Positions 301-13,710 of a stretch of 45,743 nucleotides of DNA are shown here, piece after piece. The translations under genes were made by a program, and so were the position numbers. A model generated the notes under the pieces. That model was not told the DNA's origin and searched no databases. It was given only the letters and a program-made list of their open reading frames with translations. Source of the stretch: a virus; the UHGV virus genome UHGV-0129770; one strand, 5' to 3'. Positions within the stretch are counted from its first letter, which is position 1. Each line of letters begins with the position of its first letter.

Positions 301-765
301 TCACCCTCCTTTACCCTGAAGCATGGCGTCGCTCCGCTCTATACCATCCAGCGCGATTCGCAGTGCCTGAATTGTGGTAGTGCTATCGTTTGGGGCTATT
401 CCATATCGCTCGAATACAGCTAAATGGTTGCGCATAATCTCAGGCGTAAGCTCTTTGTAAGCATAAGCAAGAGGCTCTGATGCATTATCCGGCACAACCG
501 ACGCAGGCGCGGCAGCATAAACAGGAATAACGTCCGCTTGCTCTTTATTGCTTTCATCCGTTAAAGCCCAGAATAATTTCCCGGCCGGATGTTTGAAAAT
601 ATAAGCAACTGGTTCTGCACTATCAGCTTCGCGCCGCTTCTGTAGCTCTGCTGCCATTGCTCTCACGACTTCAACTGGTGCCCTTGCGGCAAACTCTATG
701 TTGGTGATCAGCTCATTAAGATATTGCTCGCTGGGATACTGTTTCTTATTGGTAATAGTGGTCAT
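301..765 (-). CDS. hypothetical phage protein
   Basis: ORF track; 1-nt gap to neighbours, same strand; no recognisable motif. Confidence 0.45.
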   Translation of the reverse strand: MTTITNKKQYPSEQYLNELITNIEFAARAPVEVVRAMAAELQKRREADSAEPVAYIFKHPAGKLFWALTDESNKEQADVIPVYAAAPASVVPDNASEPLAYAYKELTPEIMRNHLAVFERYGIAPNDSTTTIQALRIALDGIERSDAMLQGKGG

Positions 766-1277
766 GCCGCGTTTCCTTCTTTCTTATTAACAATTACACC
801 GTCATATATTTCATTAAGGTGCCCTCTCAACTCCATGCGCCTTAATGCAGATAACATGTAATCGCATTCAACCTGCTTATTTCCAGTAAATGGCTTATCG
901 TCAGGATTACCCCAACAGCAATTACCCTTGGGCCACCCATGTACTTTCCGTACTCTTCCGTTAACAACGTGAAGTAATCCCCAGCCAGGTGGTAAATCCT
1001 CAATTGAAATAATTCCCGGCTCACTAATAAAGAATCGCCAGTCGCCCATTCCAAGAGACGGATTTTTACGAAAACGCTTTTTTCTATCTGCCAACAAGTC
1101 AGCACGAGAACACTTCGCCTCTATCAGGCATGATGCTGAATTTCTGAATCCCATAGCATCTGGCTGTTCTCCGGTACTGGTTACAGCTATAAAGCGGTCA
1201 TGAAAACAAACCTTGAACCCGTTGCGCTTAAGGAACTTGTACGCAATCTGACAGAGTTCGCGGTGTGTTAACGCCAT
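762..1277 (-). CDS. hypothetical protein (possible nuclease-like fold, D...IEAK motif)
   Basis: ORF track frame 762..1349; start moved to in-frame ATG 1277..1275, which has an AAGGAG SD 6 nt upstream and directly abuts the stop of the 1279..1467 ORF. Confidence 0.4.
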   Translation of the reverse strand: MALTHRELCQIAYKFLKRNGFKVCFHDRFIAVTSTGEQPDAMGFRNSASCLIEAKCSRADLLADRKKRFRKNPSLGMGDWRFFISEPGIISIEDLPPGWGLLHVVNGRVRKVHGWPKGNCCWGNPDDKPFTGNKQVECDYMLSALRRMELRGHLNEIYDGVIVNKKEGNAA

Positions 1278-1278
1278 A

Positions 1279-1467
1279 TCACTCTCCTTTAGTGCGCAAG
1301 TGGTTTTTCCAGCGGTTTTGCGCCGCGCTGGGCTTTTTGCAAAAACCACAATCCATCATCCCGTAATATTTCATCAACCCCATCCGTCGGTTGCTGAGTC
1401 TCACCCACTGCCAGACGCCAGGAGCGTTTCTACGAACTAACAGAATCTTTGCTTTACGGTTTTTCAT
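1279..1467 (-). CDS. small basic hypothetical protein
   Basis: ORF track; ATGA start/stop overlap with an unlisted upstream 58-aa ORF (1464..1640), itself TAATG-coupled to the 1640..2434 gene. Confidence 0.3.
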   Translation of the reverse strand: MKNRKAKILLVRRNAPGVWQWVRLSNRRMGLMKYYGMMDCGFCKKPSAAQNRWKNHLRTKGE

Positions 1468-1639
1468 CGCTTTGCTCTCCTGCGTCTCTTTGCTGCTCGT
1501 CGTGCCGCTGCAATACCGGTATGGCGGCGCTTTGGTGCCGGGATGATGTTGTCAGCCATCAGGACATGTGGCTTTGCAATTAGCGCAGAAGCCCAAAAAC
1601 GAGTCGGGTACGGTAACAAGCCGATACATGCCACACGCA

Positions 1640-2434
1640 TTACTCACCTCCTTTGATGCGAATGCCTGCGGCGCGGATTGCAGCGATGACTTCAGAAACT
1701 TTGTATGCCATTACCGTTTGGTAATCATCGTGAAAATCTGTTCGATGAAGCATGCTGCTACGTTCCGGGAGCGATATTTCCCGAGCATCCAGTTCCTTAA
1801 CGCGTTCCTCCAGTTCGTAGACCCTGCATTGTTCTCTATCATCAATCAGATATAACCCAAGACATTCGCTTTCTACCCAACCGCCAAAATCATGATCGTA
1901 ACGCTCACATGAAAACTCACCGTCACCGTCCTTTGTTGGAATGGTGTAACTATCTAATGGGCCACCATATGTCGGCACATTTCCCAATGTTGGATGCTCA
2001 ATCCACATGAAAAATGCACGTCCGGTTATTGGGCAAATATCTGGCCGCCATTGGTTACGAACAGCCTTGGTTTCGGATAATTCTTCAGCGTGTTGTTTTA
2101 CTTCCTCAAGCTCAACTCTCAGCTTCCCTACCGTTAGCGCAATATCCTCGTTCTCCTGATCGCGGCGTTTTATGTATTGCTGGTTTCTTTCCCGTTCATC
2201 CAGTAGTGCCAAAGCAACCTTTGGGTTGAACGCGGCAACATAACGAGCGTTGTTCTCTGCATTTTTCTGTCCATCAAAGCCGGTCCATTTGATAACGTCT
2301 TCACATCGTTCATCACCGGGCGTGTGCACCGCATAAGTACCAGTATCCGTCGAAATAAATGCGACCCATTCGTCTGGTGTTGCCTTTTCTGCCGCCTCAC
2401 GCAGTACCTGATAGTCAATTGTCATTCTCGCCAT
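1640..2434 (-). CDS. Ea22-like modular phage protein, paralog 1
   Basis: ORF track; central coiled coil LTVGKLRVELEEVKQ and C-terminal ...IRAAGIRIKGGE tail shared with ORFs at 6878, 7516 and 8732. Confidence 0.5.
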   Translation of the reverse strand: MARMTIDYQVLREAAEKATPDEWVAFISTDTGTYAVHTPGDERCEDVIKWTGFDGQKNAENNARYVAAFNPKVALALLDERERNQQYIKRRDQENEDIALTVGKLRVELEEVKQHAEELSETKAVRNQWRPDICPITGRAFFMWIEHPTLGNVPTYGGPLDSYTIPTKDGDGEFSCERYDHDFGGWVESECLGLYLIDDREQCRVYELEERVKELDAREISLPERSSMLHRTDFHDDYQTVMAYKVSEVIAAIRAAGIRIKGGE

Positions 2435-10998: not shown

Positions 10999-11508
10999 TT
11001 TTCTAACATTTTAAGTTGAATTGTAAATTTCTCCGATGTACATTCACTACCGATTGGCACACCGGTCAACTTTTTGAGACAAACTGTTTAGTTTTTCGTA
11101 TTATTGCCGCCGTCATACCTATGGCGGTGCAATATAGGTGGCTGAAAAGCCCCCGTTGACTCACGGTGTTCCAGCCTTTATTGCGCCGCCACCAGACCGT
11201 GGAACAGTCGATGGCGGCTCCGAAAGCAAGGAGTCACTACACTATGAACAACTACAGTCTTTTCCCATCACTCGTCGTCCACCACTCACGCGATAATCTG
11301 CATTCTTTACTCGCGTCGGGGGTGTCAAAATGACTGTTCGCTACCTCAACTTTCAAATCCAGAACATCACTGGCGGTTGCTATGACTGGTTTGTCACTCT
11401 CGGAAAAGAAGTGATCACCGGGAAGCTGGATGAAGTGAAAGTTAAAGCAATGGCCTACGCCTGCAAGCAAGCCCGGAAGAAATCCGCCAAAGCATAAAAT
11501 ACTGACTG

Positions 11509-11537
11509 TTGCGCCCTGGCATTATCGTGGGGTATAT
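11509..11537 (+). promoter_or_regulatory. candidate sigma70 promoter for the antisense RNA / immunity transcript
   Basis: -35 TTGCGC 11509..11514, 17-nt spacer, -10 GTATAT 11532..11537. Confidence 0.35.
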
Positions 11538-11543
11538 TTCTAC

Positions 11544-11623
11544 GGCACCTTAGAAAAACGGGTGCCGGGATTGGAACCCCGGATAATGTCAAAGGCGACA
11601 CAGACGCCGAAAGCGTCTTTTTT
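11544..11623 (+). ncRNA. candidate c4-like antisense regulatory RNA (about 80 nt)
   Basis: Three hairpins: CGGCACC/GGTGCCG; CCGGG-loop AUUGGAAC-CCCGG; AGACGC-cgaa-GCGTCT followed by a T-run at 11618..11623. The loop is complementary to GTTCCAA at 11726..11732 in the downstream leader. Confidence 0.4.
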
Positions 11624-11808
11624 GTGTCATGCCATCGCACAGCCATACGTAGCGTTTAGCTCAGAGATCAATGGTAGTGCTGGCTGGGCTGCCGAAAGGC
11701 AGGCCGGTTCCCTTTGACGCCGGTAGTTCCAACCCAGTCAGTGCTACCGCCATTGAGATTGGAACCTCACGCGGTAGCTCCTTAACTTAGTCAAAGGAGG
11801 CTGCCAAT

Positions 11809-12024
11809 ATGGCTACTATCCCTACCCCAACTCATTCTGAATTTATCTGGCGTTTCTATTCCTGCCAAAAACACCTGTATATCTGCGTCATGGCTGCTAC
11901 CGAAGCAGAGGCGCGCTCATACCTTCCCGAAGAACCCTGCATTTTTGCTGCTCGCTTCACTCTTGATGCGATGGAGATCCTCAATTACTGGAATCTGCCG
12001 ATGAACTGCGTGGAGGCGCACTGA
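11809..12024 (+). CDS. Icd-like small protein (cell-division-inhibitor-like)
   Basis: 71 aa; AAGGAGG SD at 11794..11800; stop overlaps (TGATG) the start of the antirepressor gene; matches the c4-icd-ant layout. Confidence 0.45.
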   Translation: MATIPTPTHSEFIWRFYSCQKHLYICVMAATEAEARSYLPEEPCIFAARFTLDAMEILNYWNLPMNCVEAH

Positions 12025-12950
12025 TGAATCTGTCCATCTCTCAAAAAGCGACAATGACCAGCATTGAGATCGCGGAACTGGTAGGTAAGCGCCCTGATAA
12101 CGTTAAACGCACCATTGAACACCTGGCGGAACGGGGCGTAATATCTTTTCCTCAAATTGAGGAAAAGCCCACCGCAGGCCGCCCGGCGAGCTATTACGTC
12201 TTCGAAGGCGAGCAAGGCAAACGAGACAGCATTATTGTCGTTGCGCAGCTCTCTCCCGAATTCACCGCCCGGCTGGTGGACCGCTGGCGCGAACTGGAGA
12301 ATGCCCGGGTACAGTTAAAATCAAAAGCCGAAATTCTGGCTGAAATGGCGCAAATGCATCTTGAGCATGAACGCCGGATCAACGCCGTAAATGCCCAGGT
12401 AGCCGAGGTATCAGCACAAGTATCGATGGTCGCTGAAACACTCGAGCAAATCAAGAAAGGCAATATGCCGGAAGGTTACATTGGCTACCGCCAGCTGGCG
12501 GCGAAATGTGGCCTGACTGAAGCCAAATGTCGCAACCTGGTTAACGCTTTCCGGATTCCCACCGATACGCATGAGTTTTTAACTCCAGAGGGTTTGCTTG
12601 CGCGACGCTCCATTGTGGCCCTGGCCCCCTTCCGGAAAGCCTTTAAGCAGGTGATGTCGGAGGCAGAACCACGCAATAAACGCTGGTATCATCCAAAGAT
12701 GGGGATGTTTCAGGCAATCCACCATCCTGTGCCTGAAAGCCCAAAGGATAATCTGTCACTACATACCGTCAGAGAGAAGATCAGGACTGGATACGCAACA
12801 GTGTGTCGTCGTTCTTCCTGGCCTGAAGGTATATGGGTGTGGCCCGAAGGTGGATCACGAAAGCACTGGCGCACCATCCGTGACGGGAAAATCCATGCTA
12901 TTGATTTAGCTCCAGAGGATGTTATTGCTATGGACTGGATTGTTAGTTAA
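12024..12950 (+). CDS. Rha-family phage regulatory protein / putative antirepressor
   Basis: N-terminus MTSIEIAELVGKRPDNVKRTIEHL matches the Rha N-terminal domain as I recall it; followed by hairpin ATCCCCGGCG-ac-GCCGGGGAT at 12958..12978. Confidence 0.55.
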   Translation: MNLSISQKATMTSIEIAELVGKRPDNVKRTIEHLAERGVISFPQIEEKPTAGRPASYYVFEGEQGKRDSIIVVAQLSPEFTARLVDRWRELENARVQLKSKAEILAEMAQMHLEHERRINAVNAQVAEVSAQVSMVAETLEQIKKGNMPEGYIGYRQLAAKCGLTEAKCRNLVNAFRIPTDTHEFLTPEGLLARRSIVALAPFRKAFKQVMSEAEPRNKRWYHPKMGMFQAIHHPVPESPKDNLSLHTVREKIRTGYATVCRRSSWPEGIWVWPEGGSRKHWRTIRDGKIHAIDLAPEDVIAMDWIVS

Positions 12951-13009
12951 ATGCTGCATCCCCGGCGACGCCGGGGATTTAACTGCCAAATAATCGGATT
13001 ATCCGCACG

Positions 13010-13321
13010 ATGAAAAAAATAGATTTCACTTATTCTGCCGCCACACTTGAGCGGCGCTTCACCCTCATTAGAGAGTTGGAGCTGTCAAAAGTCTGGTATC
13101 AAATCCTACTGGATGAAGAGTTTTCACTGATGGTTATAGCAGAAAAATTGGCTATGCCTAATGACCGGCACAAGGTCATAGCCAGCCTCGATCTGGTGAC
13201 AAACAGATACTGGGAAACAGAGGAACTACATGAGGCGGGAGTAATTCGTGACCTGATGGAGAATTCCGTTCCCCGCCGCTATCGTGCAGGGAACGGCATC
13301 TCCGTGGTTAAAGGTGTTTAA
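13010..13321 (+). CDS. hypothetical protein
   Basis: ORF track; convergent with the 13318..13710 gene. Confidence 0.35.
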   Translation: MKKIDFTYSAATLERRFTLIRELELSKVWYQILLDEEFSLMVIAEKLAMPNDRHKVIASLDLVTNRYWETEELHEAGVIRDLMENSVPRRYRAGNGISVVKGV

Positions 13322-13710
13322 AGCTCACCTGCGCGCTGTTTTTCAAGCACAGATTTAACATTTGGCGCTTTCCCTTTAAAAGAATGGAAAGTGCCACATT
13401 TTTCTGTTTTAACCTCGCGCAGAGCTTCGCCATCGGCGTTCTGCCATTGATGGGATAATGTCATATCACCGCGAGAAGGAACATCCAGCGAGTACAGCGT
13501 GTAAGTTCCCCCCATCTCCGCATACTCCTGGAACACATAGCTCATTACGTCAGATTCAGTTTTTCGGTGTGCGTTATCAACCTTATTCCCATTCAGAAAT
13601 ATGGCATCCGGATAGATTTTTATATCAAACCGACCGCACTTAACTTGTAAATTTCCGGCGCTCGCGATCAAAGGGAAAGACGCCAGTAAAGCAATAGCCA
13701 ATCTTTTCAA
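13318..13710 (-). CDS. secreted hypothetical protein (signal peptide)
   Basis: N-terminus MKRLAIALLASFPLIASAG is a typical Sec signal. Confidence 0.5.
   Translation of the reverse strand: MKRLAIALLASFPLIASAGNLQVKCGRFDIKIYPDAIFLNGNKVDNAHRKTESDVMSYVFQEYAEMGGTYTLYSLDVPSRGDMTLSHQWQNADGEALREVKTEKCGTFHSFKGKAPNVKSVLEKQRAGEL

Follow-up and report, generated by a model that had tools for sequence, protein, structure and literature searches.

The window analyzed here, a 45,743-nucleotide viral genome (UHGV-0129770), very probably carries at 11509 to 12950 an ordinary immI-type switch of a P1-family phage-plasmid, composed of a C4 RNA, icd, and an antirepressor gene and belonging to a kind already described. 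The DNA is that of a D6-like, P1-family phage-plasmid: Escherichia coli plasmid NZ_CP117014 is 99.6% identical over the module region, 452 plasmid records match the module stretch, and orf82-orf87 of phage D6 (NC_050154) are 95% identical to the locus. Experiments have taken the same layout apart in P1 and also in Gifsy-1 (Hershko-Shalev et al., 2016; PMC4825925), where the small RNA is IsrK. In P1 and P7, c4 blocks ant and determines heteroimmunity (PMC12197685; PMC8198154); in D6-like prophages, homologs of c4, icd, and the antirepressor have been described in an ImmI-related region, along with a second c4/icd region (PMC6799933). Here, we identify the RNAs of the locus, the complementarities among them, their three-way covariation, and the homologies of the adjoining genes (Table 1). 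A preliminary description of this DNA had proposed a P1 immI-like antisense module. All of the sequence features that it listed are present, and its outline (C4, icd, and a coupled antirepressor) stands; by comparison with Rfam, the roles that it had given to the RNAs are inverted.

TABLE 1 Features of the immunity locus (window coordinates)
Feature	Position	Strand	Basis or remark
C4b, second C4-like RNA	11117..11196	+	Sub-threshold Rfam C4
Putative C4b targets	TGGAACA 11200-11206; GAGTCA 11231-11236	+	Latter overlaps Shine-Dalgarno AAGGAG (11228-11233)
29-aa ORF	11244..11333	+	Overlaps 55-aa ORF by ATGA
55-aa ORF	11330..11497	+	PHROG 7786, function unknown
Promoter-like site	11509..11538	+	-35 TTGCGC, 18-nt spacer, -10 TATATT (11533-11538)
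isrK-type small RNA	11545..11623	+	Rfam RF01394; a1 and b1 sites, intrinsic terminator
C4 antisense RNA, 88 nt	11667..11754	+	Rfam RF01695
a2 target TTGGAAC	11759..11765	+	Complement of C4 a'
b2 target GTCAAAGG	11790-11797	+	Overlaps Shine-Dalgarno AAGGAGG (11794-11800) of Icd-like ORF
Icd-like ORF, 71 aa	11809..12024	+	NCBIfam NF033153; P1 Icd homologue
Rha-type antirepressor, 308 aa	12024..12950	+	Pfam Phage_pRha; PHROG 63

A C4 RNA precedes the icd-like gene

The covariance model of the C4 family matched over its full length (model positions 1-87/87), scoring 77.1 bits (gathering score, 45). The preliminary description had proposed this very search, and it was positive, but the match lies in what had been taken for the icd leader. 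The predicted minimum free energy of the RNA, -46.5 kcal/mol (z = -5.0), was equaled by none of 200 shuffled sequences. Across 39 distinct leaders of D6-like, P1-like, and Stx phages, which form the covariation set used throughout, 99.7% of long-stem cells are paired and 8 of the 16 pairs in that stem are altered on both sides, as are 4 of the 5 pairs in the first hairpin; the closing stem and two internal hairpins with compensatory changes that define a C4 RNA are therefore present. Two recognition elements are exposed, b' (CCTTTGAC, 11711-11718) in a hairpin loop and a' (GTTCCAA, 11726-11732) in a single-stranded junction. They can form 7 bp with a2 (a':a2) and 8 bp with b2 (b':b2), and b2 lies at the ribosome-binding site of the icd-like ORF. 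The GTTCC elements previously regarded as targets in the icd leader (11706-12 and 11726-32) are thus C4's own b' and a' elements.

Two ORFs that cross these RNAs were rejected as genes. The plus-strand ORF at 11671..11790 (PGAP "ash family protein") spans the C4 RNA and is not conserved as a protein, and the minus-strand ORF at 11455..11646 (D6 orf84) spans RNA elements. Both stand as questionable ORFs in the annotation of D6 or the plasmids, and RNA genes are unlisted in the D6 and plasmid feature tables examined (by design, those of the plasmids leave out RNA genes).

The isrK-type RNA carries copies of the C4 target sites

The RNA upstream of C4 matched the isrK model with 62.7 bits (gathering score 50; model positions 1-77/77). 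This is the three-hairpin RNA of about 80 nt, with an intrinsic terminator and a displayed loop sequence, that the preliminary description had located correctly. Its fold (-24.9 kcal/mol; z = -2.3 versus shuffled sequences) places AUUGGAAC (11570-11577) in the loop of hairpin 2, and its 3' end carries a terminator-like site (11602..11618) with a 6-bp G+C-rich stem and a U6 tail. The a1 site (TTGGAAC, 11571-11577) lies in this hairpin loop and is followed by b1 (GTCAAAGG, 11588-11595). The Rfam c4-a1b1 model (RF03163) scored 22.4 bits at 11532..11585, under its gathering score of 46.7, whereas it scores 51 bits in P1 and 48.1 bits in Gifsy-1; the a1/b1 element of the window occupies the c4-a1b1 position yet fits the isrK model better. 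At the level of sequence, the layout is that of isrK: after a promoter-like site and an intrinsic terminator come a complementary RNA and an antirepressor gene.

The first position of the isrK model lies 7 nt past the end of the promoter-like site. The preliminary description had placed a sigma70-like promoter at 11509..11537, and a site is indeed there, though it agrees with the consensus at 8 of 12 positions and went unreported by a consensus promoter scan. In alignment, it falls in the same columns as TTGACA and TATATT upstream of isrK in Gifsy-1 and in Stx2 phage F039. The operator consensus of P1 C1, ATTGCTCTAATAAATTT, had 0 matches in the window with up to 3 mismatches allowed; D6 C1 may recognize a different operator from that of P1 C1. 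By its alignment, the site is the positional homolog of the Gifsy-1 isrK promoter, which was defined by deletion (PMC4825925).

Because TTGGAAC and GTCAAAGG have the same sense in the 79-nt RNA as at the icd ribosome-binding site, this RNA is unable to pair there. It is best read as a copy of the a/b target, that is, as a putative decoy or anti-antisense RNA for C4 and not as a repressor. Hfq binding by IsrK and its activation in trans of translation from the read-through mRNA have been demonstrated in Gifsy-1 only (PMC4825925).

Target sites covary with the C4 recognition elements

The 7-mer TTGGAAC alone is not enriched in the window (5 matches versus 7.7 expected). The composite TTGGAAC-N(5-30)-GTCAAAGG, in contrast, occurs three times within 230 nt (as a1b1, as its complement in C4, and as a2b2) versus 0.00 expected; these counts, together with covariation across relatives, rule out a chance origin of the sites. 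Upstream, a1:a' and b1:b' are paired in 99.0% of cells, with 9 of 15 pairs altered on both sides and a covariation score of 0.433 (0.138 when shuffled, with 0 of 500 shuffles reaching the observed value, and at most 0.125 in slid controls). Downstream, a':a2 and b':b2 are paired in 99.3% of cells, again with 9 of 15 pairs altered on both sides (score, 0.429 versus 0.135); the separate values are 100% and 5 of 7 pairs for a2 with a' and 98.7% and 4 of 8 pairs for b2 with b'. Two alleles of a and two of b are found in all four combinations, the three sites remaining in register in each, and the overlap of b2 with the Shine-Dalgarno sequence is exact in every allele. Immunity specificity would be set by the sequences of the a and b sites; the allele table holds at least six a-site and at least four b-site sequences and their predicted specificities.

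In predicted duplexes, cognate pairs are the most stable, and the C4 RNA of the window pairs with a1b1 at -30.5 kcal/mol and with a2b2 at -22.4 kcal/mol. The minimum free energy structure of the whole leader likewise pairs a1/b1 with a'/b'; in Gifsy-1, the equivalent long-range helix has been proven by compensatory mutations (PMC4825925). In one natural variant (L035), the a1 site is mismatched to its own a', and a1 pairing is therefore not strictly required. A local hairpin that would hide the icd Shine-Dalgarno sequence (11773-11805) was also predicted, but it was no better than shuffled sequences (z = -0.39) and was rejected.

The icd-like ORF overlaps a Rha-type antirepressor gene

The Icd-like ORF matched the NCBIfam phage_ICD_like model (NF033153) with 49.5 bits (cutoff, 25) and is 63% identical to the cell-division inhibitor Icd of P1 (E 5e-28); a Pfam search of this ORF returned nothing, and its D6 counterpart, orf83, is annotated as Icd-like. 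Its stop codon and the start codon of the antirepressor gene share one base within TGATG, as had been described beforehand, and this overlap suggests translational coupling from icd to ant. The antirepressor scored 30.5 bits against Pfam Phage_pRha (cutoff, 29.9) and matched PHROG 63, "anti-repressor Ant," with an E value of 1.3e-64. It shares 64% identity with the second Ant encoded by this plasmid type, and BLASTP detected no similarity to P1 Ant1 (E 0.29); nor was any detectable to Gifsy-1 AnrP (E 0.82).

A second C4-like element lies upstream

C4b scored 40.2 bits against the Rfam C4 model, short of its gathering score (45 bits), with an E value of 2.4e-4 for the whole window. It folds into a Y shape (-36.2 kcal/mol; z = -4.6) that 0 of 200 shuffles equaled, and it is near-invariant among loci that share about 82% identity in their flanks; a U.U mismatch is replaced by C-G there. 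Its UGUUCCA (11167-11173) and hairpin loop UGACUC (11157-11162) are exact complements of the putative targets, and the composite of these targets occurs once in the window versus 0.07 expected. Loops and targets alike are invariant among the relatives, so that no covariation between them is seen. The GGAAC/GTTCC elements at 11172..11210, which the preliminary description had linked to the icd/ant switch, are real (GTTCCA, 11168-11173; TGGAAC, 11200-11205), but they belong to C4b and to its target. This element and its targets form a separate upstream module, outside the icd/ant switch.

The overlapping 29-aa and 55-aa ORFs are the presumed output of the C4b module. Indels of -3 and +9 nt in this region among relatives are in frame, and in one related locus (L107), a 61-aa Icd-like ORF (NF033153, 47.1 bits) takes the place of the 29-aa ORF. 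The 55-aa ORF is present in just 33 viral contigs, almost all D6-like, and no relatives turned up among GTDB species representatives. C4b is absent from the annotation of every record examined. The same phage type also carries, beside C4b, two full C4-icd-ant operons with differing loop sequences.

Proposed mechanism and alternatives

We infer the following for how transcripts start, end, and are processed and for the direction and strength of regulation. A single promoter (about 11509-11538) would direct transcription from about 11545. Most transcripts probably end at the intrinsic terminator, releasing a 79-nt isrK-type RNA that would expose a1 and b1, while read-through would extend transcription into C4 (11667-11754) and then a2/b2, icd, and ant. 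By analogy with P1, C4 would be excised from this precursor and its a' (GUUCCAA) and b' (CCUUUGAC) would pair with a2 and b2. Because b2 overlaps the icd Shine-Dalgarno sequence, icd would remain untranslated when C4 pairs with it; ant, whose start codon overlaps the stop of icd, would consequently be silenced as well. In P1, ant is also silenced through premature transcription termination, or polarity, c4 lowering ant transcription. P1 c4 is reported to be processed by RNase P and the polarity to be Rho dependent (Citron & Schuster, 1990; Biere et al., 1992; Hartmann et al., 1995).

Both as part of the precursor (in cis) and as the short RNA (in trans), the a1/b1 RNA would compete with a2/b2 for C4; its two sites match those of the mRNA target, and it is predicted to be the tighter binder. 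Such competition would yield more Icd and Ant and hence prophage induction. The literature examined gave no account of what a1/b1 does in P1; in Gifsy-1, a shift toward induction by such an RNA has been demonstrated for IsrK (PMC4825925).

A more elaborate reading, against which we lean somewhat, is a layered RNA immunity network in D6-like phage-plasmids comprising an a1/b1 sponge, recombining a/b sites, and a third C4-like riboregulator. The terminated isrK-type RNA, by binding C4 more tightly than the mRNA does, may set the threshold for induction; independent recombination of the a and b sites may generate combinatorial immunity specificities; and C4b may control the 29-aa/55-aa ORF pair, which would be the remnant of a decayed icd module.

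Pairing of C4 with nascent a1/b1 and a2/b2 might instead act mainly as in phage P4, by stopping transcription prematurely, either at the terminator of isrK or inside icd, with the block to translation as a secondary effect. An intrinsic terminator does lie directly downstream of a1/b1, the P4 cI (CI RNA) region is 72.6% identical to window positions 11662-11806, and P1 c4, as noted above, lowers ant transcription by polarity. The authors of the Gifsy-1 study themselves raise the analogy to seqA/CI/seqC and discuss a role for termination, but they also measured a 139-fold effect of IsrK with a translational fusion versus 8-fold with a transcriptional fusion (PMC4825925). This difference, and the exact overlap of b2 with the Shine-Dalgarno sequence in every allele, point to ribosome occlusion, and we consider termination unlikely as the main mode of action. 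The two mechanisms are compatible and not mutually exclusive.

We think it very improbable that the short ORF over C4 (11671..11790), the counterpart of "orf45" in Gifsy-1, is translated and that control acts on this translation, to which the downstream genes are coupled. The ATG at 11671 does open a frame of 39 codons, closed by TAG 11788-11790 and adjoining b2, and in Gifsy-1 a start-codon mutation or an inserted stop reduced anrP activation (PMC4825925). However, the frame shows no protein conservation (it stops at codon 15 in one allele, and in others it enters icd or shifts frame), its stem codons vary freely in a compensatory RNA pattern, and between C4 and ant the window has an Icd ORF of its own, preceded by a strong Shine-Dalgarno sequence.

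Hardly credible, finally, is the preliminary proposal that the 79-nt RNA is itself the C4-like repressor, its AUUGGAAC loop pairing with GTTCC in the leader to block icd translation: it has a promoter-like site, a terminator, and a loop (hairpin 2) complementary to GGTTCC (11706-11711) and GTTCCAA (11726-11732), but Rfam assigns it to isrK and places C4 at 11667..11754, its pairing partners are the C4 recognition loops, its a1/b1 sites are identical and not complementary to a2/b2 and therefore cannot occlude the icd ribosome-binding site, and its Gifsy-1 homolog activates rather than represses the downstream antirepressor (PMC4825925).

Significance

The C4 switch preferred here would decide whether the antirepressor is made, and with it the quiescence of the plasmid prophage and immunity to related phages. 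Phage-plasmids like D6 and P1 are common in E. coli and Salmonella, and the analysis offers improved annotation and a catalogue of specificity alleles. It also identifies Gifsy-1 IsrK as the a1/b1 element within a C4 module and places "orf45" inside a C4 RNA. This link joins two literatures that a 2025 review still treats separately.

Comparison with known systems

The immI locus of P1 and P7 (a1b1-c4-a2b2-icd-ant1/2) has its RNA elements in the same order and on the same strand as the window, with a C4 RNA of the Rfam family, b2 at the icd ribosome-binding site, and an icd homolog directly after c4. As in the window, icd (380..601) and ant1 (598..1641) of P1 overlap, and as in the window's family, the loop sequences of P1 and P7 define specificity alleles. 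The a'/b' sequences of P1 and the window differ. The antirepressor of the window is Rha type instead of homologous to Ant1/Ant2, and no match to the operator consensus of P1 C1 marks a C1-controlled promoter like that of P1 (operator Op51). Whereas a1/b1 of P1 fits the c4-a1b1 model, that of the window fits isrK and has its own intrinsic terminator. The window module adjoins ref; P1 immI adjoins sim, kilA, and repL.

Our scan of Gifsy-1 found isrK (79 bits), an overlapping c4-a1b1 match (48.1 bits), and C4 (69 bits) 26 nt downstream of isrK. The Gifsy-1 isrK-"orf45"/STnc1160-anrP locus thus shares with the window an isrK RNA with aligned promoter and terminator, a C4 RNA, and an antirepressor, and its helix b-I (PMC4825925) is the counterpart of the predicted long-range a1:a' helix. 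Unlike the window, it has no icd gene, and its authors describe the C4-equivalent region as a translated 45-codon "orf45" coupled to anrP (PMC4825925). Gifsy-1 is an integrated lambdoid prophage and the window element a plasmid prophage, and their antirepressors are unrelated.

In the immunity system of P4 (seqA-CI RNA-seqC), the CI RNA region is the nucleotide homolog of the window's C4 region, and target copies lie both upstream and downstream of the RNA, as in the window. P4, unlike the window, is without icd or ant, and its CI RNA acts by premature transcription termination of the replication genes (PMC4825925).

Phage D6 and the D6-like plasmid prophages (NC_050154; pYU39_89, PMC6799933) carry the same locus. 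The D6 record has no RNA genes here and has the antisense orf84 annotated across the RNAs. The two differ in specificity allele, the window having a GGAAC and b GUCAAAGG and D6 having a GAGAC and b GCAAAAGG.

Tandem isrK-type and C4 RNAs precede icd

An Rfam covariance-model scan of the whole window returned two above-threshold matches, to the C4 antisense RNA and isrK families (Table). The preliminary description had proposed a c4/icd/ant-like module repressed by an RNA of about 80 nt, and the covariance-model check that it suggested was positive for the C4 family. All of the sequence features that it listed are present, including the hairpin RNA, which is 79 nt long, ends in a terminator-like stem and U6, and exposes AUUGGAAC in a loop of its predicted fold. 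GGTTCC (11706-11711) and GTTCCAA (11726-11732) are also found as described; these, however, are recognition elements of C4 itself and not targets, as had been thought. The proposed outline of RNA control thus stands in part: a C4 RNA exists, but it sits in the supposed leader, and the candidate repressor is the upstream element termed a1/b1 by P1 workers. The promoter assigned to this upstream RNA matches the consensus weakly (8/12) and was not returned by our promoter scan. In alignments with a Stx2 phage and with the Gifsy-1 isrK promoter, however, its −35 falls on TTGACA and its −10 on TATATT, and its spacing from the RNA start is right.

Table. Features of the C4-icd-ant region and of the upstream C4b module
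Feature	Coordinates	Description
C4b promoter-like site	11076-11104	GAGACA-17-TATTAT
C4b, C4-like RNA	11117..11196	40.2 bits, below gathering score; E 2.4e-4 over whole window
29-aa ORF	11244-11333	overlaps 55-aa ORF by ATGA
55-aa ORF, downstream of 29-aa ORF	ends 11497	PHROG 7786, function not assigned
isrK	11545..11623	Rfam 62.7 bits (gathering score 50)
a1b1	11571-11595	composite-motif occurrence
C4 antisense RNA	11667..11754	Rfam 77.1 bits (gathering score 45)
b' element of C4		CCUUUGAC, hairpin loop
a' element of C4		GUUCCAA, junction
Complement of composite within C4	11711-11732	composite-motif occurrence
a2b2	11759-11797	composite-motif occurrence
icd	11809..12024 (+)	71 aa
ant	12024..12950 (+)	308 aa

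C4 elements covary with both target copies

The window contains the composite motif TTGGAAC-N-GTCAAAGG exactly three times (0.00 expected), and b2 overlaps the icd Shine-Dalgarno sequence AAGGAGG (11794-11800). We examined covariation in 39 distinct leaders drawn from 80 viral contigs encoding Icd relatives, with a Stx2 phage added. Across these leaders, a' and b' pair with a1 and b1 in 99.0% of cells and with a2 and b2 in 99.3%, and in each test 9 of 15 pairs have changed on both sides. Covariation scores were 0.433 for a1/b1 (0.138 shuffled) and 0.429 for a2/b2 (0.135 shuffled); none of 500 shuffles reached the observed value in either test, and slid controls scored ≤0.125. Half of the pairs in the long stem of C4 (8/16) are likewise compensatory.

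Two a alleles (GGAAC and GAGAC) and two b alleles (GUCAAAGG and GCAAAAGG) are seen in all four combinations, with the three copies always in register, and the additional alleles GGCCU, GGUCU, GGCGU, and AGGAC behave in the same way. The window carries GGAAC with GUCAAAGG, whereas phage D6 carries GAGAC with GCAAAAGG. The sole leader of the 39 whose upstream copy mismatches C4 (L035, 2201..2506) has a GAGAC-type a1 with GGAAC-type a' and a2, and is probably a recombinant with its breakpoint between a1 and C4. Among predicted duplexes, cognate combinations are the most stable; in the window, C4:a1b1 (−30.5 kcal/mol) is predicted to be tighter than C4:a2b2 (−22.4 kcal/mol), and the whole-leader fold (−111.8 kcal/mol, z = −4.8) forms the a1/b1:a'/b' helix.

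In the best-supported model, C4 would occlude the icd Shine-Dalgarno sequence by pairing with a2/b2, silencing the coupled ant, and the isrK-type a1/b1 RNA would compete for the C4 elements and relieve the block; transcription, termination, processing, and effect sizes we infer. A P4-like termination mechanism may coexist with this translational block; the cI region of P4 is homologous at the nucleotide level. A different reading takes the "orf45"-type frame over C4 (11671..11790, +) as protein coding, and a PGAP "ash family protein" CDS in NZ_CP117014 sits exactly on C4 in this frame; among alleles, however, the frame stops early, shifts, or runs on into icd, and it is not conserved as a protein. 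Along with the antisense orf84 of D6 (11455..11646, −), which spans the isrK and C4 region, it looks like an annotation artifact over RNA genes. The assignment of the 11545..11623 RNA as the antisense repressor is contradicted by the sequence because a1/b1 are identical, not complementary, to the Shine-Dalgarno-proximal sites.

The locus belongs to a known plasmid-prophage module

The 71- and 308-aa ORFs overlap within TGATG, as previously described. The former scores 49.5 bits against the NCBIfam Icd-like model (cutoff, 25) and shares 63% identity with P1 Icd. The latter passes Pfam Phage_pRha narrowly (30.5 versus 29.9) and matches PHROG 63, "anti-repressor Ant" (E 1.3e-64); similarity to P1 Ant1 or Gifsy-1 AnrP was not detectable. 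Immediately 3' of the ant stop codon lies a G+C-rich inverted repeat (CCCCGGCG..CGCCGGGG, 12953..12985) that may mark the operon end; it lacks a long T-run, and the terminator scan did not report it.

Over 11100..13000, identity is 95.1% to the P1-like plasmid prophage D6 and 99.6% to Escherichia coli plasmid NZ_CP117014; this region matches 452 plasmid records, chiefly from Escherichia and Salmonella. The homologous stretch of D6 reads ref-like nuclease, orf86, orf85, antisense orf84, "Icd-like" orf83, "anti-repressor Ant" orf82, and a pmgF-like gene, with no RNA genes annotated. The c4-icd-antirepressor module is not new: work on D6-like prophages published in 2019 places c4, icd, and an antirepressor in an ImmI-related region and reports a second region of the same kind (PMC6799933). 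In one public Stx2 phage record, tandem isrK and C4 annotations stand upstream of a gene named Rha-type or regulatory in other records.

A complete plasmid of the same type (NZ_CP117014.1) carries two full modules, that of the window and one adjoining repL, which lies outside the window (about 69.7-70.9 kb; L119 21713..22894). The repL-adjacent module has a c4-a1b1 element (55 bits) and an aligned C4 sequence the same as the P1 c4 match; its Icd and Rha-type Ant are 43% and 64% identical to those of the window. A single phage therefore carries a pair of paralogous antirepressor operons whose C4 RNAs differ in loop sequence, one of the two having P1 specificity.

A C4-like element lies upstream

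GTTCCA (11168-11173) and TGGAAC (11200-11205) are present upstream as described, but belong to a separate, third C4-like element, C4b (fold z = −4.6); none of the records examined lists C4b as an RNA. Its junction UGUUCCA is exactly complementary to TGGAACA (11200-11206), and its hairpin loop UGACUC to GAGTCA (11231-11236), which overlaps the Shine-Dalgarno sequence of the 29-aa ORF. C4b is near-invariant even where the flanks of the locus retain only about 82% identity; relatives show one stem change (U.U to C-G), and ORF indels are in frame. Because loops and targets never vary, the support for this pairing comes only from conservation and complementarity. In contig IMGVR_UViG_2908543018_000007 (L107, 1133..1668), a C4b-like RNA precedes an intact 61-aa Icd-like ORF (NF033153, 47 bits), in the position of the 29-aa ORF, and then the 55-aa ORF, with a minus-strand ORF resembling window 13318..13710 immediately after it; the isrK-C4-icd-ant module is apparently absent there. 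This arrangement suggests that the 29-aa ORF is an icd remnant and that C4b is part of an immI-like paralogous module in which icd has decayed along the D6 lineage.

Immediately past the ref stop codon come a hairpin, CCGAUUGGCACACCGG, and then a T-run (11050..11075). The hairpin is similar to hairpin 2 of isrK and is complementary to the C4b junction at all but one of 9 positions. Relatives differ in the hairpin with no corresponding change in C4b; it may be a degenerate a1-type site.

Comparison with P1/P7 and Gifsy-1

P1/P7 and Gifsy-1, both studied by experiment, share the layout of the window. In P1/P7, c4 RNA pairs with ant mRNA near the ribosome-binding site, blocking antirepressor synthesis, and determines heteroimmunity (PMC12197685; PMC8198154). 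The P1 immI region equivalent to isrK of the window matches Rfam c4-a1b1 (51 bits) and, with a lower score, isrK (35 bits); a C4 match (68.8 bits) comes next. In Gifsy-1, short IsrK targets the read-through transcript in trans and thereby turns on translation of the antirepressor encoded downstream, and compensatory mutations (G28A/C162U and G31A/C159U) proved a long-range helix between mid-IsrK and a downstream segment (PMC4825925); the a1/b1:a'/b' helix predicted here is the same helix. A 2025 review still gives IsrK and c4 as unrelated entries. In Gifsy-1 (L120 34131..34329, −), isrK (79 bits) overlaps an above-threshold c4-a1b1 match (48 bits), and a C4-family RNA (69 bits) begins 26 nt downstream of isrK, so that both start codons published for "orf45" (+107 and +120) fall within C4.
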